Notes: generated by a model from the sequence alone, not told the origin. 29,553 nucleotides of DNA from a virus (IMGVR_UViG_2740892031_000002); one strand, 5' to 3'. Shown: positions 128-22,998, counted from the first letter of the stretch. Program-made: numbers and translations.

Positions 128-907
128 ATGACGATGAATTCATTCGAGCGAAGGAATAAGATCATCCAATTAGTGAATGAACAGGGAACCGTGCTTGTTC
201 AGGATCTGGCGGGAGTATTTGCTGCCTCGGAAGCGACAATCCGTGCCGATTTGCGCTTTCTCGAACAAAAAGGCGTGGTTACGCGCTTTCATGGCGGTGC
301 GGCGAAAATAATGTCAGGTAATAGCGAAACCGAGACCCAGGAAGTCGGGTTTAAAGAGCGATTTCAGCTCGCCAGCGCGCCGAAAAACAGAATAGCGCAG
401 GCGGCAGTCAAAATGATCCACGAAGGGATGACCGTTATTCTCGACAGCGGAAGTACCACAATGCTTATCGCCGAAGGATTAATGACCGCCAAAAATATCA
501 CGGTGATTACCAACAGTCTCCCGGCGGCGTTTGCCCTTTCCGAAAATAAAGACATTACTCTGGTCGTCTGCGGTGGCACGGTCCGCCATAAAACGCGCTC
601 GATGCATGGATCTATTGCTGAACGTTCCCTGCAGGATATTAATGCCGATTTAATGTTTGTCGGTGCTGATGGTATTGATGCGGTTAATGGTATTACGACC
701 TTTAATGAAGGTTATTCCGTTAGCGGTGCGATGGTGACAGCGGCGAATAAAGTGATTGCCGTTCTTGATTCATCGAAATTTAATCGTCGCGGTTTTAATC
801 AGGTACTGCCAATCGAAAAAATTGACATTATTATTACCGATGATGCTGTGTCTGAGGTGGATAAACTGGCATTGCAGAAGACACGGGTAAAATTAATTAC
901 GGTGTAG
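128..907 (+). CDS. gatR: DeoR-family transcriptional repressor (N-terminal HTH, C-terminal sugar-phosphate-binding domain); position next to yegS matches galactitol operon repressor GatR
   Basis: 259-aa ORF; DeoR-like N-terminus (NKIIQLVNEQGTVLVQDLAGVFAASEATIRADLRFLE); sits convergent to yegS as gatR does in E. coli. Start could be ATG at 128 or 134. Confidence 0.7.
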   Translation: MTMNSFERRNKIIQLVNEQGTVLVQDLAGVFAASEATIRADLRFLEQKGVVTRFHGGAAKIMSGNSETETQEVGFKERFQLASAPKNRIAQAAVKMIHEGMTVILDSGSTTMLIAEGLMTAKNITVITNSLPAAFALSENKDITLVVCGGTVRHKTRSMHGSIAERSLQDINADLMFVGADGIDAVNGITTFNEGYSVSGAMVTAANKVIAVLDSSKFNRRGFNQVLPIEKIDIIITDDAVSEVDKLALQKTRVKLITV

Positions 908-988: not shown

Positions 989-1888
989 TTAACGCAACAA
1001 TGGACAATCTGGTGGTAATCGACAACGCAACGCCGCCGGAAGTATTTCAATATGGAAGTTTTGCCCACTCAACGGTTCGCCATCAAGATTAAAAGTGATT
1101 TCGTGTGGGGCTTGTATATCAAACCACGACGAAGCACCTTCGATAATATTCGGGTTATCTTCGTCAGATTTTAAGGTTGATACGAGAGTCGGAATAATTT
1201 CATCGCCGGTAAAAATGCGCAGTTGCAGCAAGCCATCGTTAATTAATGCGTTCGGGCACAATTGTTGACCGCCACCGGCCTGACGCCCGTTACCAATACC
1301 AATGACCAGGGCGTCACCTTGCCAGTGAAAGTTTTCACCGCGGATTTCACAACGGTCCGGTTGCAGAGTGTCCATGCGCATTAAGCCATGAATGATGTAA
1401 GAGACGCCACCCAGCGCGGCTTTTAATTTTTCCGGCGTTTCTGTGGTAATACGCGTCCCAAACCCGCCTGTCGCCATATTAATAAAACAGGTTTGTTTGT
1501 TGACCTGCGCCATATCTATCGCAATGGCGTTACCGGCAATTGCCAGTTTCAGCGCCTTATCCAGTGCCTCAGGAATCCCTACACTAGTGGCAAAATCATT
1601 GGCAGTTCCTAATGGTAAAATTCCCAGCGCGGGTATGTCATCCCCCTCACATTGAATCAATGCCGTAGAAACTTCATTAATGGTGCCATCGCCACCACCG
1701 GCAATCACTGTTGCGACGCCTAACTTCCGGGCCTCCTCTACAAATCGTGCAGCATCGCCTTTCTCCCAGGTGATCCGCACATGGATCGTCATTCCTTCCT
1801 CACGCAACAGCATAATTGCTTCGCGCAAGGGTAGATTGTCAGTACTTTTGCCATTAAGAATCAGTAAGCTGGCGGGAAATTCTGCCAT
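989..1888 (-). CDS. yegS: Lipid kinase YegS (diacylglycerol-kinase catalytic-domain family)
   Basis: 299-aa ORF with the DAGK_cat glycine-rich motif ([13 protein letters not shown]); full-length match to my recollection of E. coli YegS. Confidence 0.85.
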
Positions 1889-2302
1889 GATCGTATGTGC
1901 CTTTATGATTGGTCTGTAGATAGTGTAGAGCAGAAAAGAAAAGGTGGAGTCAGAACAGGATGAAAGTCGGAGGATAAAAAGTCAGTTCAGGTATGGGGAT
2001 TCAGTGCTTACCACCAGGACCTTACAATGGGGACAGCGAATATTAACGGTAGCCACTGATAAATTTTAAAAAAGAGAATATACCTAATATTCAACTAAAC
2101 AGTGGCATCTTCAATATACTATTCAAAATATATTAAAGTCCCCCATGGGGTTACCCGGAAGGGCCTCTATGTCTGTAATTCCTACTTATGTAGGAAATGT
2201 TGTACAGAACATTTATTATAATCCTATTCAATTATAATAATCATGCCATTATTATATTTAAACACCAGAGCGTGTCGTTGGTATTTAATGGGGGAAGGTG
2301 AG

Positions 2303-2620
2303 ATGAAAAAGATAGCTGCTATATCATTAATTAGTATTTTTCTTATGTCTGGGTGTGCTGTACATAATGATGAGACAAGTATCGGTAAATTTGGTCTTGC
2401 ATATAAAAGTAATATTCAGCGTAAACTCGATAACCAATACTACACCGAAGCCGAAGCTTCTTTAGCCAGGGGCAGAATATCTGGTGCAGAAAATATAGTA
2501 AAAAATGATGCAGCCCATTTCTGTGTTACTCAGGGCAAAAAAATGCAGATAGTTAAATTGAAGACAGAAGGTGCAGGATTACATGGCGTTGCTCGTCTGA
2601 CATTCAAATGTGGAGAGTGA
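2303..2620 (+). CDS. yegR: Small secreted/lipoprotein-like protein, likely host yegR
   Basis: Tracked ORF 2243..2620; internal ATG at 2303 is preceded by a GGAAGGTGA Shine-Dalgarno and gives 105 aa starting with a signal peptide ending LMSGC (MKKIAAISLISIFLMSGCA). Size and position next to yegS match E. coli yegR; AT-rich. Confidence 0.55.
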   Translation: MKKIAAISLISIFLMSGCAVHNDETSIGKFGLAYKSNIQRKLDNQYYTEAEASLARGRISGAENIVKNDAAHFCVTQGKKMQIVKLKTEGAGLHGVARLTFKCGE

Positions 2621-6644: not shown

Positions 6645-8934
6645 AGCCTCCGGGCGTTTTGTCCCTCCGTCAGCATTTGCTGCAGGCACCGGTAAGGCGT
6701 TTACCGGTGCTTATGCATGGAACGCGCCACGCGAGGCCGTCGGGCGCGAAAGACCCCTTACACGTGACGAGATGCGTCAGGTGCAAGGTGTTTTATCCAC
6801 GATTAACCGCCTGCCTTACTTTTTGCGCTCGCTGTTTACTTCACGCTATGACCACATCCGGCGCAATAAAAGCCCGGTGCACGGGTTTTATTTCCTCACA
6901 TCCACTTTTCAGCGTCGTTTATGGCCGCGCATTGAGCGTGTGAATCAGCGCCATGAAATGAACACCGACGCGTCGTTACTGTTTCTGGCAGAGCGTGACC
7001 ACTATGCGCGCCTGCCGGGAATGAATGACAAGGAGCTGAAAAAGTTTGCTGCCCGTATCTCATCGCAGCTTTTCATGATGTATGGGGAACTCAGTGATGC
7101 CTGGGTGGATGCGCATGGCGAAAAAGAATCGCTGTTTACGGATGAGGCGCAGGCTCACCTCTATGGTCATGTTGCTGGCGCTGCACGTGCTTTCAATATT
7201 TCCCCTCTCTACTGGAAAAAATACCGTAAAGGGCAGATGACCACGAGGCAGGCATATTCTGCCATTGCCCGTCTGTTTAACGATGAGTGGTGGACTCATC
7301 AGCTTAAAGGCCAGCGTATGCGCTGGCATGAAGCGTTACTGATAGCTGTCGGGGAGGTCAATAAAGACCGTTCTCCTTATGCCAGTAAACACGCCATTCG
7401 TGATGTGCGTGCGCGCCGCCAGGCAAATCTGGAATTTCTTAAATCGTGTGACCTTGAAAACAGGGAAACCGGCGAGCGCATCGACCTTATCAGTAAGGTG
7501 ATGGGCAGTATTTCTAATCCTGAAATTCGCCGGATGGAGCTGATGAACACCATTGCCGGTATTGAGCGTTACGCCGCCGCAGAGGGTGATGTGGGGATGT
7601 TTATCACGCTGACCGCGCCGTCAAAGTATCACCCGACACGTCAGGTCAGAAAAGGCGAAAGTAAAACCGTTCAGCTTAATCACGGCTGGAACGATGAGGC
7701 ATTTAATCCAAAGGATGCGCAGCGTTATCTCTGCCGCATCTGGAGCCTGATGCGCACGGCATTCAAGGATAATGATTTACAGGTCTACGGTTTGCGTGTC
7801 GTCGAGCCACACCACGACGGAACGCCGCACTGGCATATGATGCTTTTTTGTAATCCACGCCAGCGTAACCAGATTATCGAAATCATGCGTCGCTACGCGC
7901 TCAAAGAGGATGGAGACGAAAGAGGAGCTGCGCGAAACCGTTTTCAGGCAAAACACCTTAACCGGGGCGGTGCTGCGGGATATATCGCGAAATACATTTC
8001 AAAAAACATCGACGGCTATGCACTGGATGGTCAGCTCGATAACGATACCGGTAAGCCGCTTAAAGATACTGCCGCGGCTGTTACCGCATGGGCGTCAACG
8101 TGGCGCATTCCGCAATTTAAAACGGTTGGACTGCCGACAATGGGGGCTTACCGTGAACTACGCAAATTGCCTCGCGGCGTCAGTATTGCTGATGAGTTTG
8201 ACGAACGCGTCGAGGCTGCTCGCGCTGCCGCAGACAGTGGTGATTTTGCGTTGTATATCAGCGCGCAGGGTGGGGCAAATGTCCCGCGCGATTGTCAGAC
8301 TGTCAGGGTCGCCCGTAGCCCGTCGGATGACGTTAACGAGTACGAGGAAGAAGTCGAGAGAGTGGTCGGCATTTACGCGCCGCATCTCGGCGCGCGTCAT
8401 ATTCATATCACCAGAACGACGGACTGGCGCATTGTGCCGAAAGTTCCGGTCGTTGAGCCTTTGACTTTAAAAAGCGGCATCGCCGCGCCTCGGAGTCCTG
8501 TCAATAACTGTGGAAAGCTCACCGGTGGTGATACTTCGTTACCGGCTCCCACACCTTCTGAACACGCCGCAGCAGTGCTTAATCTGGTTGATGACGGTGT
8601 TATCGAATGGAGTGACCCGGAGGTTGTGAGGGCGCTCAGAGGTGCATTAAAATGCGGACTGAGAACACCAAATCGTCAGCAAAGAAACGGAAGTCCGTTA
8701 AAACCGCATGAAATAGCGCCATCAGCCAGGCTGACCAGGTCGGAGCGATTGCAAATTACCCGTATTCGCGTTGATCTTGCTCAGAACGGTATCAGACCTC
8801 AGCGATGGGAGCTTGAGTCGCTGGCGCGTGGGGCAACCGTAAATTATGACGGGAAAAAATTCACGTATCCGGTCGCTGATGAGTGGCCGGGATATTCAAC
8901 TATAACAGAGTGGAATCAATTTGATGACGGGTAA
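6634..8934 (+). CDS. A: Replication initiation endonuclease A (rolling-circle initiator)
   Basis: Tracked ORF 6592..8934; P2 gpA begins MAVKASGRFVPPSAFAAGTGK, which corresponds to ATG at 6634 (766 aa). Long-range identity to P2 A by eye. Confidence 0.93.
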   Translation: MAVKASGRFVPPSAFAAGTGKAFTGAYAWNAPREAVGRERPLTRDEMRQVQGVLSTINRLPYFLRSLFTSRYDHIRRNKSPVHGFYFLTSTFQRRLWPRIERVNQRHEMNTDASLLFLAERDHYARLPGMNDKELKKFAARISSQLFMMYGELSDAWVDAHGEKESLFTDEAQAHLYGHVAGAARAFNISPLYWKKYRKGQMTTRQAYSAIARLFNDEWWTHQLKGQRMRWHEALLIAVGEVNKDRSPYASKHAIRDVRARRQANLEFLKSCDLENRETGERIDLISKVMGSISNPEIRRMELMNTIAGIERYAAAEGDVGMFITLTAPSKYHPTRQVRKGESKTVQLNHGWNDEAFNPKDAQRYLCRIWSLMRTAFKDNDLQVYGLRVVEPHHDGTPHWHMMLFCNPRQRNQIIEIMRRYALKEDGDERGAARNRFQAKHLNRGGAAGYIAKYISKNIDGYALDGQLDNDTGKPLKDTAAAVTAWASTWRIPQFKTVGLPTMGAYRELRKLPRGVSIADEFDERVEAARAAADSGDFALYISAQGGANVPRDCQTVRVARSPSDDVNEYEEEVERVVGIYAPHLGARHIHITRTTDWRIVPKVPVVEPLTLKSGIAAPRSPVNNCGKLTGGDTSLPAPTPSEHAAAVLNLVDDGVIEWSDPEVVRALRGALKCGLRTPNRQQRNGSPLKPHEIAPSARLTRSERLQITRIRVDLAQNGIRPQRWELESLARGATVNYDGKKFTYPVADEWPGYSTITEWNQFDDG

Positions 8935-9065
8935 TCGAATGGAATGATCCGGCGGTCGTGAGGGCGCTCAGAGGTGCATTAAAACACGGTCTGAGAATAC
9001 CAAATCGTCAGCAAAGAAACGGAAGTCCGTTAAAACCGCTTGCATTTGTGCCATCGCGAGGCTGA
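8921..9065. repeat. Degenerate direct repeat of the 3' end of gene A (partner copy at about 8588-8734)
   Basis: ~145 bp starting ttgatgacgg...atcgaatgga...gtgagggcgctcagaggtgcattaaaa... recurs just after the A stop codon, similar but clearly diverged by eye; the second copy is out of frame and non-coding. Confidence 0.85.
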
Positions 9066-9351
9066 TCAAATCAGGTTTGTGATAAATTACTAGTATTTAT
9101 ATAGACCTCGCTCAGTATGGCATCACACAGAAGTAATGTAAGCGTGGGGGGCGTGGTGTACCATTGATATACGACGGTCGAAAATTTACATAGCCGATTT
9201 CCTGTGATTGGTTTTCGTTATGCACTCTTTTCTGAAGAGATTAACTACTGATAGACTCAGGTTGGATGTCAGAATCGCTATAGATTTCTTGCTATATATG
9301 TATTTTTCAATGAAAATGATCTCTGATTTAAACTGTAGTAAGGTGATTGGT

Positions 9352-9840
9352 ATGGATGGTTTATGGGAAAAAATATCGTCATATAATATATTTAATAATC
9401 TTTTTCCAGGTGCTCTTTTTATTTATCTTCTTGAGAGAATGACGAATATCGTTTTATCTGGCGATGATTTAATAAAAAATGTTGTCCTCTATTATTTTGT
9501 TGGCTTAGTCATTGGCCGGATTGGTTCTATCGTATTGGAACCTTTTTTAAAACTATCGCGTTTGATTAAGTTTGCTCCTTATAAAGATTATGTGTCAGCA
9601 TGTGGTGTGGATGGAAAAATTGAAACTTTGCAAGAGATTGCGAATATGTATAGGACGATATTTTCAATGTCAATTATTCTTTTGGCGACATTGTGCGTTG
9701 TAGGACGGTTTACTGGCGAGACATATGGCTTATCTAAAATAACGTTGGCGGTTTTTGCTATTTTGTTTGTTGTCTCATATATTAAACAAATAAGATACAT
9801 AATATATAGAGTAAATGCTGTTAATAATAAGCTGCCGTAA
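9352..9840 (+). CDS. Hypothetical small multi-pass membrane protein (about 4 predicted TM helices); hotspot cargo
   Basis: Tracked ORF 9208..9840; ATG at 9352 has an AAGGTGA Shine-Dalgarno 5 nt upstream (163 aa). Four hydrophobic stretches (LFPGALFIYLL; VVLYYFVGLVIGRIGSIVL; IFSMSIILLATLCVV; ITLAVFAILFVVSYI). AT-rich; no homolog recognised. Confidence 0.65.
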   Translation: MDGLWEKISSYNIFNNLFPGALFIYLLERMTNIVLSGDDLIKNVVLYYFVGLVIGRIGSIVLEPFLKLSRLIKFAPYKDYVSACGVDGKIETLQEIANMYRTIFSMSIILLATLCVVGRFTGETYGLSKITLAVFAILFVVSYIKQIRYIIYRVNAVNNKLP

Positions 9841-9850
9841 GGCAGCTTTT
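9829..9850. terminator. Bidirectional intrinsic terminator between convergent cargo genes
   Basis: Perfect 8-bp stem aagctgcc / ggcagctt with a gtaa loop that contains the stop codon of the membrane-protein gene, followed by a T-run. Confidence 0.7.
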
Positions 9851-9853
9851 GAA

Positions 9854-10945
9854 TTATTCTTCGGTTCTATAGTTACTAATGTATGATCGTGGAGTGGCTG
9901 TTTTCCATCCTGCCCTTTCAGGAGCATTATAAAAATGGTACTTACCAAGCCCCTCGGTGGCGATAACTTTCGCTCCTCGTCGAGTAAAGGCATTAATTAC
10001 AGCTTGATGGGGATGTTTATCTGAACCTGGGGCACATGATACAAATGCGGTTATCTCCCTTTTTTCGCCTTCATTTACAATGTTACCAACAAGTTTATCG
10101 AGAACATCAGGGCCTACATTTCTCCGGCTACCATGATGAGGTACTTGAATGAATCTTAATGATTCTTTATTAATGTATTGGGAGGCTTGATCTAAGGCTG
10201 TTATACCAGCATCGCCAGTGAACACTAACGTTCTTCCATCAATCTCAAGTTTCAAAATGACACTTGAGTTATTTTGTGCCGAGGTGGTATCTTCATTATC
10301 AATACCTTCATCAGTAAACCATTCAGCAACGTAATCAATAAATTTCTTCGTTTTTTCAACTACAGACTCAAAGACTGCTTTTAGTACTTCAAATCCAGCT
10401 GTATCCTCAGCTTTTTTGGGCATTCTTGCGAAATCAGGTATTAGAGTCTCATAGTAAGATTGGGTTGGCCCGATAACAACCAGAGTAGCATTATCCCAGG
10501 TCATTCCTTGAAAAGGCTCTTTTATTTCAATTCCTTTTTTTTCCGCTAATTTGACAGCGTCATAAGCTTTTTGTAAGTTTTCTTTCATTCGATTTGCAAT
10601 ACTGGCATCAGTTATCCTGCCATCTGCAAACTCACTTGCGAGACCTTGATTATGTTCCCAAGGCTTATGAATCCAAAACTCTTTTACTTCTGCATTTTCT
10701 AGAACAGATGTAAGTCCACCGACGTGGTCACCATCGGGGTGTGTGGAGATAAGCAAGTCAATAGTTTTTGTGCGGTAGTATTTTTCAATATGCTCAATGA
10801 CTTGTTCTCCGGTGCTGGCATATCCTGCATCAATAACGACAACTTTTTGTTCATCTCTTGAACCATGTAGGTTTCCCCATCTGATGCAGATCGCATCGCC
10901 GCTTTTTTTTTCGCCAACAGCTAGAAAATCAATTTCGTAACCCAT
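9854..10945 (-). CDS. Metallo-beta-lactamase-fold hydrolase, ComEC/Rec2-like subtype (putative metal-dependent nuclease); hotspot cargo
   Basis: 363-aa ORF. ComEC-type MBL signatures in order: IDFLAVGEKKSGDAICIRW, KVVVIDAGY, LISTHPDGDHVGG (variant of the HxHxDH motif), LVFTGDAG, QVPHHGS. AT-rich. Confidence 0.8.
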   Translation of the reverse strand: MGYEIDFLAVGEKKSGDAICIRWGNLHGSRDEQKVVVIDAGYASTGEQVIEHIEKYYRTKTIDLLISTHPDGDHVGGLTSVLENAEVKEFWIHKPWEHNQGLASEFADGRITDASIANRMKENLQKAYDAVKLAEKKGIEIKEPFQGMTWDNATLVVIGPTQSYYETLIPDFARMPKKAEDTAGFEVLKAVFESVVEKTKKFIDYVAEWFTDEGIDNEDTTSAQNNSSVILKLEIDGRTLVFTGDAGITALDQASQYINKESLRFIQVPHHGSRRNVGPDVLDKLVGNIVNEGEKREITAFVSCAPGSDKHPHQAVINAFTRRGAKVIATEGLGKYHFYNAPERAGWKTATPRSYISNYRTEE

Positions 10946-11107
10946 TCCATATCCTTATTAAACTGTGAATTAACATGAATCCAAGATGTTAAATCATATG
11001 GATAATAACGCAACTTTTCCGCAGTAAACACTGTGAGCGGATTTAATCTCGTCAGAACTAAAAGCAAGTAGTGTGACGAGGGACAATGAGTCTCTTTGGG
11101 GCGTTGG

Positions 11108-11545
11108 CTATGACACTGACGCAACCAGATTAACGCCGTGAGTCAGCAGATTTGTAATCACACCGGCAATGACCCCAGGAGTCCCATCTTTCACCGCACT
11201 GATCACTTTATCCCCCATCGTTTCATTTCCACCAAGCACCTCGGGTTTTTTGTTAAGAACTGTGAGCGCTTTTTCAGTAAGTCGAACATCGTAAAAATAC
11301 GACTGATGGTCTGTGTTGTACTGAATGTACCCGTTTTCACAGAGAAAATTGAATGTACCTTCAACCACACTACGCAACTGATTTAACGCTTTCATTTCTG
11401 GTGAGTTAAGTTGGTCAAAGTAGTCATCAGGTAGCGCGGCGTTAAATTTGTCGTAGTTAATCACCTGTGGTACGGGAAAATTTTCCCATAGTACTGCAAA
11501 GATTTCCGCCGTTTGTTGGTTAAATAAATCGAGATTTTTCGACAT
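11108..11545 (-). CDS. Hypothetical protein (~145 aa), upstream of and co-directional with the MBL hydrolase
   Basis: Tracked ORF 11108..11647 (179 aa). In-frame ATGs at 11557 and 11545 give 149 or 145 aa; none of the three starts has a convincing Shine-Dalgarno, so the start is uncertain. Hydrophobic, glycine-rich C-terminus (GTPGVIAGVITNLLTHGVNLVASVS). No homolog recognised. Confidence 0.6.
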   Translation of the reverse strand: MSKNLDLFNQQTAEIFAVLWENFPVPQVINYDKFNAALPDDYFDQLNSPEMKALNQLRSVVEGTFNFLCENGYIQYNTDHQSYFYDVRLTEKALTVLNKKPEVLGGNETMGDKVISAVKDGTPGVIAGVITNLLTHGVNLVASVS

Positions 11546-11873
11546 GCAAAATTCCATTTCTTTTGATAATGAGTGGGTTAAACGCTGGACGAGGCAGATT
11601 ACCACTCTGGCACAAAACAATGATCTTAGTTCACGCGAAGTTGACATATATACCGATAAGCTGGTTGCGCAGGCAACTAGCGTAGAACTCGCTCAGGTCA
11701 TCAAGATGCTATTGAATTATATTCGAATGAACAAATAAAATGATCTGTATCAATCTGTTAGGTGTCGTTTGTAAAAATGTGTGGACACGATTGTTCTGCT
11801 AATTGTTGTCAACATGTGCGTCAACAGTGAGATTGGTGCATTGCGCGGCCAGTGACAACTTTAAAAATTGGCC

Positions 11874-11903
11874 AAAACCGGCACTATGAATGCCGGTTTT
11901 TTT
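11874..11903 (+). terminator. Rho-independent terminator (right boundary of the cargo hotspot, before cos)
   Basis: Stem aaaccggca / tgccggttt with 7-nt loop, followed by tttttttgtgttttttt. Confidence 0.75.
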
Positions 11904-12061
11904 GTGTTTTTTTCTGCGATACTCCTATTTTTAGCAGTGCATGCAATATGTGCGTGGTTTTGCATGTGCCTAAGTTGCATGTTCTGGCTGTGCACCGTCA
12001 GGACGGACGCCCCTCAAAAGTGGTAATGCACCTGCATTAAAACCGACCTATGAAGCGGGCG

Positions 12062-12080
12062 GGCGAGGCGGGGAAAGCAC
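12062..12080. other. cos site (19-nt cohesive-end sequence of P2)
   Basis: ggcgaggcggggaaagcac is identical to the P2 cohesive-end sequence as I recall it; lies between the cargo hotspot and Q as in P2. Confidence 0.7.
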
Positions 12081-12212
12081 TGCGCGCTGGCGGTGGTGCT
12101 GATTTTATTTTTTCAGCGTCTCAGCGCGTCGTGATGGCATTTAGTCGGCCTGCTCGGGCGTTGGTGTGTCTGCGGGGTGTTTTGTGCGGTGGTGAGGGCG
12201 TGATGACGGGAT

Positions 12213-12241: not shown

Positions 12242-13276
12242 TCAGCCGTTGTCAGTGTCAAGTGAGTAGTTTTTAAAGCGGATGACCTCCTGACCGAGCC
12301 AGTCGTTTATCTCGCGGATCCTGTCCTGTAACGGGATAAGCTCATTGCGGACAAAGACCTTTGCCACTTTCTCAATATCACCCAGCGACCCGACGTTCTC
12401 CGGCTTGCCACCCATCAACTGAAAGGGGATGCGGTGCGCGTCCAGCAGGTCAGCGGCGCTGGCTTTTTTGATATTAAAAAAATCGTCCTTCGTCGCCACT
12501 TCACTGAGGGGGATAATTTTAATGCCGTCGGCTTTCCCCTGTGGGGCATAGAGAAACAGATTTTTAAAGTTATTGCGGCCTTTCGACTTCACCATGTTTT
12601 CGCGAAGCATTTCGATATCGTTGCGATCCTGCACGGCATCGGTGACGTACATGATGTATCCGGCATGTGCGCCATTTTCGTAATACTTGCGGCGGAACAG
12701 CGTGGCCGACTCATTCAGCCAGGCAGAGTTAAGGGCGCTGAGATATTCCGGCAGGCCGTACAGCTCCTGATTAATATCCGGCTCCAGCAGGTGAAACAAG
12801 GAGCCGGACGCGAAGGCTGTCGGCTCGTTGAAGGACGGCACCCACCAGTAAACATCCTCCTCCACGCCACGGCGGGTATATTTTGCCGGTGAGGTTTCCA
12901 GTCTGATGACCTTACCGGTGGTGCTGTAACGCTTTTCCAGAAACGCATTACCGAACACCAGAAAATCCAGCACAAAGCGGCTGAAATCCTGCTGGGACAG
13001 CCACGGATGCGGGATAAATGTCGAGGCCAGAATATTACGTTTGACGTAAATCGGTGAGCTGTGATGCACGGCAGCACGCAGGCTTTTTGCCAGACCAGTA
13101 AAGCTGACCGGTGGTTCATACCATCTGCCGTTACTGATGCACTCGACGTAATCCAGAATGTCACGGCGGTCGAGTACCGGCACCGGCTCACCAAAGGTGA
13201 ATGCTTCCATTTTCGGGGCGCTGGCGGTCATTTTTTTTGCCGCAGGTTGCTGTGTTTTCCCTTTTTTCTTGCTCAT
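12242..13276 (-). CDS. Q: Portal protein
   Basis: 344-aa ORF, same length and position as P2 gpQ; start overlaps the P stop. Confidence 0.9.
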   Translation of the reverse strand: MSKKKGKTQQPAAKKMTASAPKMEAFTFGEPVPVLDRRDILDYVECISNGRWYEPPVSFTGLAKSLRAAVHHSSPIYVKRNILASTFIPHPWLSQQDFSRFVLDFLVFGNAFLEKRYSTTGKVIRLETSPAKYTRRGVEEDVYWWVPSFNEPTAFASGSLFHLLEPDINQELYGLPEYLSALNSAWLNESATLFRRKYYENGAHAGYIMYVTDAVQDRNDIEMLRENMVKSKGRNNFKNLFLYAPQGKADGIKIIPLSEVATKDDFFNIKKASAADLLDAHRIPFQLMGGKPENVGSLGDIEKVAKVFVRNELIPLQDRIREINDWLGQEVIRFKNYSLDTDNG

Positions 13277-21493: not shown

Positions 21494-22279
21494 TTATGAG
21501 TGGTTTTTATTTGATGCTTTGTATTCTAAAACCTTCTTATTGGCGTAAAGGAATTTTGTGTATGACAGGAATATAAATAGACCTGAAATAAAATAGATTA
21601 GGGATATTATTAATAATGTTTTTCTGTGGCTGTTATTATCTTTAATCTCCTGACTTAACCATTCGGAGTCCTCCTCGTTTAGCTGTAAGAGCTTATTGCA
21701 GGCGATTGCAGGAAGTGTGTCTGTTACAAAAGTGTTCTGCAGTCTCTTGCAATCGGCAATGCTAAAAGCTTTATAGAACTTATCTGTTTTATTGTCGGAG
21801 AACAAAAGAACCTTGTCATTATAAACATGGTACATCATATTTTTATATGGTATGGCTATGGCATCCTCTACTATGGCAGATTGCTCGTTGTGTATGCAAC
21901 ATGCGAAGATAATATAAAGAATTCCGGCCAGGACTGCACTCATTGTTTTTGTGATGCATGGCGGTTCTGTTATGTCTCCCCAGAAGCGAGTAAGGAAAAA
22001 ATCCGATGTTTTTAGTTTTCCATCAATCAGCCCCTGCTGTATCATTCTCACATCTTCGATGCCTGATACATTGATTCCGTTAAGTATTTTAAATAGTTGA
22101 ATGTCGCGCCACTCGCGGTCCAGTCTTTTTAATTTTTTGTCTGAATATCCAAATTTGAAATAATGTGCAATAAGCCTCATAAGGTTACTTTTACCAAAGC
22201 TAAAAAATGCTAATACTGCAAAGACCAAAAGATACAAAACGATTAGCTCCCACACATTAGTCACATTATAGCTGACCAT
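21494..22279 (-). CDS. Hypothetical multi-pass membrane protein at the S-V (P2 orf30) accessory locus
   Basis: 261-aa ORF; AAGGAG Shine-Dalgarno 6 nt upstream of the ATG. Hydrophobic helices near the N-terminus (VWELIVLYLLVFAVLAFFSF), mid-protein (TMSAVLAGILYIIFACCI) and C-terminus (LLIISLIYFISGLFIFLSY). Strongly AT-rich; no homolog recognised. Confidence 0.8.
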   Translation of the reverse strand: MVSYNVTNVWELIVLYLLVFAVLAFFSFGKSNLMRLIAHYFKFGYSDKKLKRLDREWRDIQLFKILNGINVSGIEDVRMIQQGLIDGKLKTSDFFLTRFWGDITEPPCITKTMSAVLAGILYIIFACCIHNEQSAIVEDAIAIPYKNMMYHVYNDKVLLFSDNKTDKFYKAFSIADCKRLQNTFVTDTLPAIACNKLLQLNEEDSEWLSQEIKDNNSHRKTLLIISLIYFISGLFIFLSYTKFLYANKKVLEYKASNKNHS

Positions 22280-22362
22280 TACGCTCTCCTTGAATGTTGT
22301 CTGGTGGTTCTACAAATGAATCCAGATAGCATAACTTTTATATATTGTGCAATCTCACATGC

Positions 22363-22998
22363 ATGGACACTCTCGCAAATATTCAGGAACTCGCGCGCGC
22401 ACTGCGCAACATGATTCGTACCGGCATTATCGTTGAAACCGACCTTAACGCCGGTCGCTGCCGTGTGCAGACCGGCGGCATGTGCACCGACTGGCTTCAG
22501 TGGCTGACCCATCGCGCCGGACGTTCGCGCACATGGTGGGCACCTTCCGTGGGGGAACAGGTGCTGATTCTGGCCGTGGGCGGTGAACTCGACACGGCGT
22601 TCGTTCTGCCGGGGATTTATTCCGGCGATAACCCTGCGCCGTCTGCGTCGGCGGATGCCCTGCATATCCGTTTCCCTGACGGGGCGGTGATTGAGTATGA
22701 ACCCGAAACCAGTGCGCTTACGGTAAGCGGAATTAAAACGGCCAGCGTGACGGCTTCTGATTCTGTTACTGCCACGGTGCCGGTGGTCATGGTGAAAGCA
22801 TCAACCCGCATCACTCTGGACACGCCGGAGGTGGTCTGCACAAACAAGCTGATCACCGGCACGCTGGAAGTGCAGAAGGGCGGGACGATGCGCGGCAACA
22901 TTGAACACACCGGCGGTGAACTCTCATCAAACGGTAAGGTACTGCATACCCATAAACACCCCGGCGACAGCGGCGGCACAACCGGGAGTCCTTTATGA
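22363..22998 (+). CDS. V: Baseplate central spike protein
   Basis: Tracked ORF 22345..22998; ATG at 22363 gives 211 aa matching P2 gpV (C-terminal HTHKHPGDSGGTTGSPL). Confidence 0.9.
   Translation: MDTLANIQELARALRNMIRTGIIVETDLNAGRCRVQTGGMCTDWLQWLTHRAGRSRTWWAPSVGEQVLILAVGGELDTAFVLPGIYSGDNPAPSASADALHIRFPDGAVIEYEPETSALTVSGIKTASVTASDSVTATVPVVMVKASTRITLDTPEVVCTNKLITGTLEVQKGGTMRGNIEHTGGELSSNGKVLHTHKHPGDSGGTTGSPL

Follow-up and report, generated by a model that had tools for sequence, protein, structure and literature searches.

What cargo does a P2-like prophage carry between its replication gene and its portal gene, and what might that cargo do for its host? The question is raised by the viral sequence IMGVR_UViG_2740892031_000002, a stretch of 29,553 nucleotides (nt) that is referred to here, at its full length, as the window. 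The window is a P2-like prophage of E. coli in which gene A (replication) ends at position 8934 and is followed by a cargo interval, the portal gene Q (12242..13276, minus strand), and a terminase gene. The chromosomes of strains 4/1-1 and O25b:H4 contain the interval at 100% identity. An original prediction, made from the sequence alone, described positions 9066-11903 as an AT-rich, uncharacterised cassette of three genes that occupies the P2 A-to-cos hotspot for defence systems. The low guanine-plus-cytosine (GC) content is evident (0.35-0.44 over positions 9001-12000 vs. 0.51-0.57 on both flanks), and the assignment to the hotspot agrees with the survey of Rousset et al. (2022, PMC9122126), in which the P2 hotspot directly adjoins cos. 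The cassette itself fares differently. As judged from the sequence comparisons below, the interval is made up of two unrelated modules that appear to have been brought together by recombination in the P2 gpA-cos hotspot, and only the first of them, a two-gene pair already catalogued as a phage defence candidate, is likely to act in defence. The features of the two modules are as follows.

9352..9840, plus strand: module 1, small inner-membrane protein of 162 amino acids (aa) with four transmembrane (TM) helices, PDC-M48A type (from PADLOC, PHROG and a structural model)
9854..10945, minus strand: module 1, predicted cytoplasmic ComEC-type hydrolase of the metallo-beta-lactamase (MBL) fold (PDC-M48B), 363 aa, predicted metal-dependent deoxyribonuclease (DNase)
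10946..11107, no strand: junction of the modules, a 162-bp spacer with a break in DNA homology between its two sides
11108..11545, minus strand: module 2, 145-aa protein with a hydrophobic C-terminal tail, found in Enterobacteriaceae P2-like phages only (phrog_2266, E 5e-59)
11544..11738, plus strand: module 2, 64-aa gene, divergent from the 145-aa gene (phrog_2454, E 4e-35)

The open reading frames (ORFs) of the interval are real genes and not chance occurrences, since their hidden Markov model (HMM) E-values reach 1e-100 and the small genes show an excess of third-codon-position substitutions. Three ORFs are present with the coordinates and spacings first reported, and the RefSeq annotation of an identical E. 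coli locus lists the same three (162, 363, and 145 aa), including the 162 bp between the 145-aa gene and the MBL gene. The 64-aa gene had been overlooked. The absence of tin- and old-like genes, also part of the original prediction, is borne out in that neither PADLOC nor Pfam yields an Old (ATPase-TOPRIM) or Tin match for any ORF in 9066-11903.

The first module belongs to the PDC-M48 family. The TM protein matches the PADLOC model PDC-M48A (PDLC04670) at E 1.5e-50 across profile positions 1-162 of 164, while residues 3-357 of the MBL protein align with positions 5-353 of 357 in PDC-M48B (PDLC04676) at E 1.1e-100. The two genes are also adjacent, as the PADLOC definition asks, with 13 bp between their convergent stop codons. 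PDC-M48 is the PADLOC "phage defence candidate" cassette CAS_00157, and the candidates in that set were drawn from among genes located inside BREX, DISARM, and type I restriction-modification (RM) loci, an approach termed "guilt by embedding" (Payne et al. 2024, bioRxiv 10.1101/2024.01.29.577857). The "M" of the name is read here as multi-gene, since Payne et al. describe both single- and multi-gene candidate systems. The same pair is listed as system #34 in Table S5B of Rousset et al. 2022, with the entries "Lactamase_B", 107 occurrences, two proteins, and "4 TM in protein 2" (PMC9122126). Lactamase_B is likewise the Pfam assignment of the window's MBL protein, and each window protein differs from its #34 counterpart by one substitution, at the same P2 gpA-gpQ hotspot.

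The pair is therefore already known from RefSeq, from the Rousset P2-hotspot catalogue, and from PADLOC, and the copy in the window adds no new object. Since the pair carries two names, the view of the cassette as an uncharacterised novelty falls away. Of the proviso that profile searches might place the proteins in a named, characterised defence family, the first half holds and no evidence of characterisation was found. In the related literature, Millman 2022 has no more than a generic COG2333 cluster, which is not assignable to this MBL family, and Liu et al. 2026 tested HamMAB and not an MBL-TM pair.

Evidence that the interval is composite comes from comparison of the A-to-Q region among relatives. 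Positions 9283-10947 of the window, which hold the TM and MBL genes, align at ~73% identity to phages 12W, D8, 11W, and P24E6b (positions 384-2048 of the query), and the resemblance to the 12W-type allele ends at the start codon of the MBL gene. On the other side of the junction, positions 11124-12087 align at ~78% to Klebsiella phage ST147-VIM1phi7.1, Midge, and Salmonella phage FSLSP004. The signals for expression of the MBL gene itself must lie in the spacer between the two. Gene content tells the same story. The TM and MBL genes are the sole occupants of the slot in phage 12W and E. coli 118UI. In the Klebsiella phage and in O157:H7 FRIK2533, the 145-aa and 64-aa genes lie beside a helix-turn-helix (HTH)/XRE regulator and a reverse transcriptase, and in phage Midge they lie beside a DinI-like gene. 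When 5426 complete E. coli genomes were surveyed, the pair was present in 45, of which 23 have the window allele and 22 an allele of ~72% identity; the small-gene module was present in 94, with only 23 copies linked to the pair. A P2-style convergent pair was found at 16 viral loci, all with the same TM type and orientation and 15 with P2 gpA and/or Q in the fetched stretch, and the small gene accompanied it in only six.

These distributions bear directly on whether the TM, MBL, and 145-aa genes constitute one novel system, as was first proposed. The three are adjacent, share a low GC content, and are found as a set, at ≥99% identity, in 23 complete E. coli genomes and also on six viral contigs. 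However, 22 of the 45 E. coli genomes and four sequenced phages have the pair but not the small gene, and the small gene lacks the pair in ~70 E. coli genomes, where it lies beside unrelated cargo. Moreover, the small gene is confined to the Enterobacteriaceae whereas the pair spans many phyla, and the DNA homology breaks between the modules. The distribution thus largely refutes a three-gene system, which is regarded as very improbable, and the supposed leftward pair of the 145-aa and MBL genes is not a conserved one. By contrast, the TM-MBL pair is very probably a single functional unit, for reasons that extend well beyond E. coli and are set out below.

The MBL protein has intact catalytic motifs and a ComEC-like fold. 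Its metal-binding residues (H69, D71, D73, and H74 of an HxDxDH motif, together with D245 and H270/H271) do not vary among 40 diverse homologues, and D73 and H74, suggested at the outset as targets for mutation, accordingly lie within the invariant motif. The structural model has a predicted local distance difference test (pLDDT) score of 89, a disordered variable loop at residues 184-197 excepted. By sequence and by fold alike, ComEC is the best match, and the protein holds ~125 residues beyond ComEC. Since it has no signal peptide, it should be cytoplasmic. The invariant metal-binding residues, and the homology to known DNases described below, suggest that the protein is probably a DNase.

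Resemblance to ComEC is not identity with it. The ComEC equivalog TIGR00361 gives 49 bits vs. a cutoff of 190, with only the MBL part aligning, PRK11539 gives 27 bits vs. 969, and Pfam detects no competence-channel or OB domain. The name "ComEC/Rec2 family competence protein", which NCBI attaches to the protein, is unsupported by these Pfam and NCBIfam scores. A role in competence or DNA uptake (a "split ComEC"), or as an accessory nuclease for phage replication or packaging, would draw on that RefSeq name and on the ComEC MBL domain as the closest fold. It is weakened by the same scores, by a four-TM partner that matches no Pfam family, and by a pair that is absent from most P2-like phages (45 of 5426 E. 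coli genomes vs. 2145 with the flanking genes), which is not the pattern of a core replication or packaging gene and runs counter to the possibility, raised originally, that these genes are conserved in all P2-like phages. Such a role is the least probable of the alternatives considered. A separate labelling matter is that phrog_7043 annotates the protein as a "tail protein". The profile has 1077 positions and the match lies at 619-901, and the label apparently stems from fused or mis-merged entries within the family.

The closest relatives of the enzyme in defence are MBL proteins found together with trypsin-like proteases in the Hachiman, Avs, Lamassu, DRT, and ABC-3C systems. Three studies from 2025 show that these are double-stranded DNases made as proenzymes, which are unmasked once the protease has cleaved two loop insertions that inhibit them (PMC12642450, PMC12799240, 10.1101/2025.09.03.673762). 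Homology to them extends over the whole core of the window protein, with PADLOC E-values of 1.6e-29 for the LmuA model, 3.9e-20 for RTasMBL, and 2.5e-14 for Avs1a. Alignment to the Hachiman- and ABC-3C-linked enzymes agrees with homology, at ~20% identity end to end with reciprocal HMM matches. The window protein nonetheless lies outside the clade of these models. It scores 335 bits on the PDC-M48B model vs. 101 bits on the LmuA model, which places it in a clade separate from the protease-linked MBLs, and membership of two named families was rejected on scores far below the curated cutoffs (NCBIfam Avs1a, 62 bits vs. a cutoff of 420; 6A-MBL model NF058524, 33.9 bits vs. 220). The inhibitory loops of the Hachiman enzyme, as given in the 2025 studies, lie at 107-129 and 184-203, and the disordered loop of the window protein at 184-197. 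This loop and the ~125 residues beyond ComEC are a hint that the window enzyme, too, may be latent.

The membrane partner is a small protein whose start is residue M49 of a longer ORF, with an AAGGTGA Shine-Dalgarno sequence. It matches phrog_11864 at E 6.6e-98 and no Pfam family. Its AlphaFold2 (AF2) model has a pLDDT of 89, with helices at 11-31, 40-68, 77-86, 89-121, and 126-159. From the distribution of Lys and Arg, both termini are predicted to be cytoplasmic (N-in/C-in). The family has many invariant polar residues, namely K7, S9, S10, and Y11; R56, G58, S59, and E63; E95, N98, Y100, and R101; and S142, Y143, K145, and Q146. With the N-in/C-in topology assumed, these fall on the cytoplasmic face, and a conserved face of this kind would suit a docking surface for a cytoplasmic partner. 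The PDC-M48A-type TM family comprises 1217 clusters at 50% identity, and among the best 150 of the 1217 representative clusters all proteins are 158-216 aa long and none is fused to another domain. NCBI often names members of the family "phosphohistidine phosphatase", for which Pfam and NCBIfam scores give no support.

Linkage of the MBL and TM genes is conserved across phyla. A profile search with the MBL protein, restricted to one genome per species, returned at least 464 loci, of which 80 were fetched. These span the Proteobacteria, Planctomycetota, Acidobacteriota, Bacteroidota, Cyanobacteria, Patescibacteria, Actinobacteria (Streptomyces), and further groups. Mechanical ORF calling found an ORF of 157-262 aa with at least three TM segments directly 3' of the MBL gene at 63 of the 80 loci. 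These ORFs begin at -58 to +16 nt relative to the stop codon of the MBL gene and, save at one locus, are on the same strand. Inspection of the remaining 17 loci revealed 12 more partners that had been hidden by contig ends or the choice of start codon, for a total of ~75 of 80. On viral contigs, the MBL gene adjoins a small multi-TM protein in 34 of 35 cases. Conversely, homologues of the TM protein lie beside an MBL gene in Faecalibacillus (a Firmicute), in a Porphyromonas conjugative transposon, and in an unclassified bacterium, in three different gene orders.

The enzyme is the constant member of the pair, and its partner varies. Only four of the 80 species loci have a PDC-M48A-type TM protein (E below 1e-10), with one more weak match. 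The other partners fall into at least three further sequence classes that match nothing in Pfam or PADLOC (loci L015-L094; e.g., L047, L069, L077, and L089). One class is ~210 aa long with the motifs LVFLR..LPGHR..LLYRDA, another is ~250 aa with GRDLGK..WGG.PTT..NYGFRRNL, and a third is ~160-180 aa with YCLRGVYL..VWY.LRP. Homology between the PDC-M48A family and the ~210-250-aa partners was rejected, as none is detectable (hhalign probability 1.6%); the shared motifs suggested by an alignment of five sequences are given no weight. All classes have a common plan of two TM helices, a cytoplasmic loop, and two more TM helices, and the MBL proteins of the other classes match PDC-M48B at E 1e-88 to 1e-102. 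In 63 of 72 cases an MBL protein and its nearest relative have partners of the same class (~32% would be expected by chance), a proportion from which shared ancestry has not been removed. Since neither PADLOC nor Pfam covers the additional partner classes, PADLOC would miss most of the family.

The exchange of partners around a conserved enzyme favours a regulatory or anchoring role for the TM protein, and it is the evidence against which a different division of labour has to be weighed. In that alternative, which recalls RexAB, the four-TM protein would be the killer, as an ion channel or pore, and the MBL protein would sense phage DNA and gate it, so that depolarisation and not DNA degradation is the outcome. 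Small TM proteins of defence systems are mostly taken to be effectors (Rousset 2022, PMC9122126), a prophage-encoded cytoplasmic protein with a four-TM protein of ~150 aa mirrors lambda RexA/RexB, and the many invariant polar residues of the TM family would suit a gated channel. However, neither protein is homologous to its lambda counterpart, with hhalign probabilities below 1% (0.7% for the four-TM protein vs. RexB and 0.5% for its partner vs. RexA), and the complete catalytic metal site, invariant across the MBL family, suggests that catalysis matters. A TM partner that has been swapped among at least four unrelated classes while the enzyme is conserved is also better fitted by an interchangeable regulator or anchor. 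The RexAB-like arrangement is accordingly considered unlikely, and the TM protein is taken, tentatively and at an even chance or slightly less, to be a regulator, anchor, or sensor and not the killer.

A role of the pair in defence, or in conflict between mobile elements more generally, is likely in view of where its copies are found: the P2 hotspot, neighbourhoods of type I RM systems, Tn7-like cargo, a conjugative transposon, and plasmids. For example, the TM-MBL pair of the unclassified bacterium adjoins a type I RM system, and other copies adjoin type I RM genes, a DUF4365 protein, Tn7-like cargo, and plasmid genes, small plasmids included. The suggestion that a ComEC-like MBL hydrolase and a four-TM protein form a nuclease-based or membrane-acting defence module thus remains plausible, as far as sequence comparison can tell. 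In Vibrio navarrensis (loci L006/L007, 7778-13092), the pair is preceded by a type I RM system and followed directly downstream by a triad of VWA protein, PP2C phosphatase, and Ser-Thr kinase together with a large AAA_11/AAA_12 helicase, which makes for a dense defence-island context.

The same locations have a second possible meaning, namely that the pair is a stabilisation module of the addiction or toxin-antitoxin kind, or that it excludes superinfecting P2-like phages in a narrow manner, and is not a general anti-phage system. Its occurrence on small plasmids, conjugative transposons, Tn7-like elements, and prophages would fit, and another P2-hotspot system acts against relatives of P2 (Rousset 2022, PMC9122126). 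Set against this are the many copies that reside in chromosomal defence islands beside type I RM genes. Such functions also overlap heavily with abortive infection and are hard to tell apart from it by sequence. Overall, addiction or narrow exclusion is judged improbable, somewhat more so than a RexAB-like killer.

For a latent DNase coupled to the membrane, the following course of events may be inferred. Both proteins of the pair would be made by the prophage. The MBL protein would be a metal-dependent DNase that is kept inactive by its insertions relative to ComEC, by its membrane partner, or by both. The TM protein would bind the enzyme by its conserved cytoplasmic face and either tether it at the inner membrane or sense infection there, with DNA entry or membrane perturbation among the possible signals. 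Infection would free or activate the nuclease, and DNA would be degraded. The outcome would be destruction of incoming phage DNA or death of the cell (abortive infection), by which the lysogen population would be protected. Taken as a whole, a latent DNase that is controlled or tethered by a membrane partner and acts in defence is favoured by a modest margin over the possibility that some part of this scheme is wrong.

A number of observations weigh against this scheme. The second-best structural match of the MBL protein is a phosphorylcholine esterase, and a phosphodiester substrate other than DNA is conceivable. The enzyme might then act at the membrane on a lipid head group, on a phosphocholine-type substituent of the cell envelope, or on a nucleotide signal, with the TM protein positioning it there. 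This is considered improbable, slightly more so than addiction or exclusion, since ComEC is the best match by both sequence and fold, since the closest relatives in defence cut only DNA when beta-lactam, choline ester, and RNA substrates were tested, and since an enzyme that lacks a signal peptide would have no access to envelope substrates outside the cytoplasm. Returning to the latent DNase, no protease was detected among the proteins of the A-Q interval by Pfam, NCBIfam, and PADLOC (by PHROGs only in the case of the 64-aa ORF), and the cut-site motifs of the pro-nucleases (Ile/Ser, KSS) are not conserved in the MBL alignment. For these two reasons latency is argued by analogy. Neither structure nor sequence comparison yields an informative relative of the TM protein, so that an anchor, a sensor, and an effector are all compatible with it. 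Gene order differs too, in that the pair is convergent in P2-like phages, unlike the co-directional order of most non-P2 loci, and a promoter scan of the interval was uninformative, with promoter-like sites rarer than in shuffled sequence. As for prior evidence of protection, Payne et al. call their candidate set untested (10.1101/2024.01.29.577857), the DefensePredictor paper leaves PDC systems out as unvalidated, and a motif search located the #34 sequences in the Rousset catalogue file only and not in the table of tested systems. No paper that names PDC-M48 or the RefSeq accessions of the pair was found in the searchable literature.

What makes the pair worth pursuing is that its enzyme has relatives among the recently characterised immune DNases activated by proteolysis and yet comes without their protease. 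A bolder and rather speculative proposal is that the MBL family is a phylum-spanning sister of the protease-activated pro-DNases that is licensed by interchangeable small four-TM proteins of at least four unrelated classes. If true, this would constitute a distinct, membrane-coupled switch for an immune nuclease, one that might sense phage DNA entry or envelope damage, and the PADLOC definition of PDC-M48 would take in no more than a small fraction of the family, as the four PDC-M48A-type matches among 80 loci suggest. If the pair protects, a second way of controlling this nuclease family, by a membrane partner, would be at hand, along with grounds to widen the PDC-M48 definition to other classes of TM partner. 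As a compact E. coli module of ~1.6 kb on a P2-like prophage, the pair is a good candidate that would be cheap to test. In addition, two database labels are corrected: "ComEC/Rec2 family competence protein" for the MBL protein and "phosphohistidine phosphatase" for the TM protein.

The second module (11108..11738) is better described as part of the cos-proximal backbone of one P2-like sub-lineage, and stands outside the system formed by the pair. The start codons of its two genes overlap by 2 nt (11543..11546), and the order is kept in the Klebsiella, O157:H7, and Midge homologues. Since the genes are divergent with overlapping start codons, the promoter of each must sit within the other. Substitutions relative to three diverged homologues number 39/22/167 at the three codon positions of the 145-aa gene and 48/42/106 at those of the 64-aa gene (plus-strand frame), an excess at third positions that shows purifying selection on both. 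In the 145-aa protein, a conserved domain at the N terminus is followed by a tail at the C terminus that is hydrophobic and Gly-rich. Its family consists of 69 protein clusters, every taxon-named one of which is enterobacterial, and the protein has no PADLOC, Pfam, NCBIfam, or PDB match. A likeness to T7 gp5.5/5.7, for which the annotation of phage Midge cites HHpred, was not reproduced by hhalign (probability ~0.1%), which is a weak negative given a shallow profile with an effective number of sequences (Neff) of 1.7.

The edges of the insert are marked by three features.

8931..9055, plus strand: degenerate copy of part of gene A, a 125-nt direct repeat of 8599-8723 (89% identical)
11874..11900, plus strand: terminator-like stem-loop with A and T runs alongside, a 10-bp stem followed by a T-run, at the right edge of the insert
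12062..12080, plus strand: the 19-mer GGCGAGGCGGGGAAAGCAC, the P2-type cos cohesive-end sequence, read directly from the sequence

These are largely the boundaries first described, with the terminator and cos at the right and a gene A duplicate at the left, except that the duplicate is not the very 3' end of the gene. Its translation matches gpA residues around IEWSDPEVVRALRGALK, and the copied segment stops 211 nt short of the A stop codon, making it an internal, 3'-proximal piece. It is a remnant of the 3' portion of an older gene A, just downstream of the present A stop codon. Recombination seems to have left it as a scar where the hotspot begins on the left, and the event behind it looks like a swap of hotspot cargo along with the end of gene A. 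In 18 E. coli genomes (matches H7-H23) with the same 3.2-kb interval, the alignment falls into two pieces that span ~3513 bp, or ~312 bp extra vs. the window somewhere in the interval.

Elsewhere in the window, the left end consists of host genes, namely a DeoR-family regulator (128..907) and a YegS-like lipid kinase (989..1888), followed by an AT-rich ORF of 125 aa without matches (2243..2620) and a phage integrase (3055..4068, minus strand). With host genes on the left and the integrase at that position, the attachment junction of the prophage should lie at roughly 2-3 kb. A second AT-rich island (GC 0.37-0.42) is found on the minus strand within the plus-strand block of P2 late and tail genes. 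Its two ORFs are back to back (21494..22279, 261 aa, and 22279..22665, 128 aa, both minus strand) with no Pfam or PADLOC matches, and the island at 21494..22665 is possibly cargo in a second variable slot of P2.

The pair can finally be set beside the systems that it most resembles. With PDC-M48 and Rousset #34 it shares both protein families at full length, and the window copy differs from them in nothing; the PADLOC PDC-M48A models, for their part, cover one of at least four classes of TM partner found with the MBL family. The trypsin-MBL pro-nucleases (HamM in HamMAB and the Avs-, Lamassu-, DRT-, and ABC-3C-associated enzymes) resemble the window enzyme in their ComEC-like fold with extra insertions and in their defence contexts. 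In those systems, however, the protease is fused to a sensor (HamA, Avs, or LmuA), whereas the window pair has neither a protease nor a sensor of the STAND, helicase, or SMC type, and its partner is a small membrane protein. Rst_Hydrolase-3TM, a HAD-like hydrolase with a 3-TM protein from the P4 hotspot that has been validated against T7 (Rousset et al. 2022, PMC9122126), is alike in combining a hydrolase with a small TM protein in a cos-adjacent hotspot of the P2/P4 system. This is the hydrolase-plus-TM family to which the original prediction had alluded, and it differs in both enzyme (HAD vs. MBL) and hotspot (P4 vs. P2). The proteins themselves show no similarity, with BLASTP giving E 0.19 between the MBL protein and the HAD-like hydrolase and hhalign giving 0.3% between the TM proteins. 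Lambda RexAB is likewise a prophage pair of a cytoplasmic protein and a four-TM inner-membrane protein of ~150 aa, in which RexA, unlike the cytoplasmic protein of the window pair, is not an MBL enzyme. In ComEC/Rec2, the closest solved fold to the window MBL protein, a nuclease domain is also functionally linked to a membrane component. There, however, both reside in one large polytopic protein with a competence domain, whereas the window enzyme is a separate, soluble protein with ~125 extra residues and a tiny, unrelated membrane partner.

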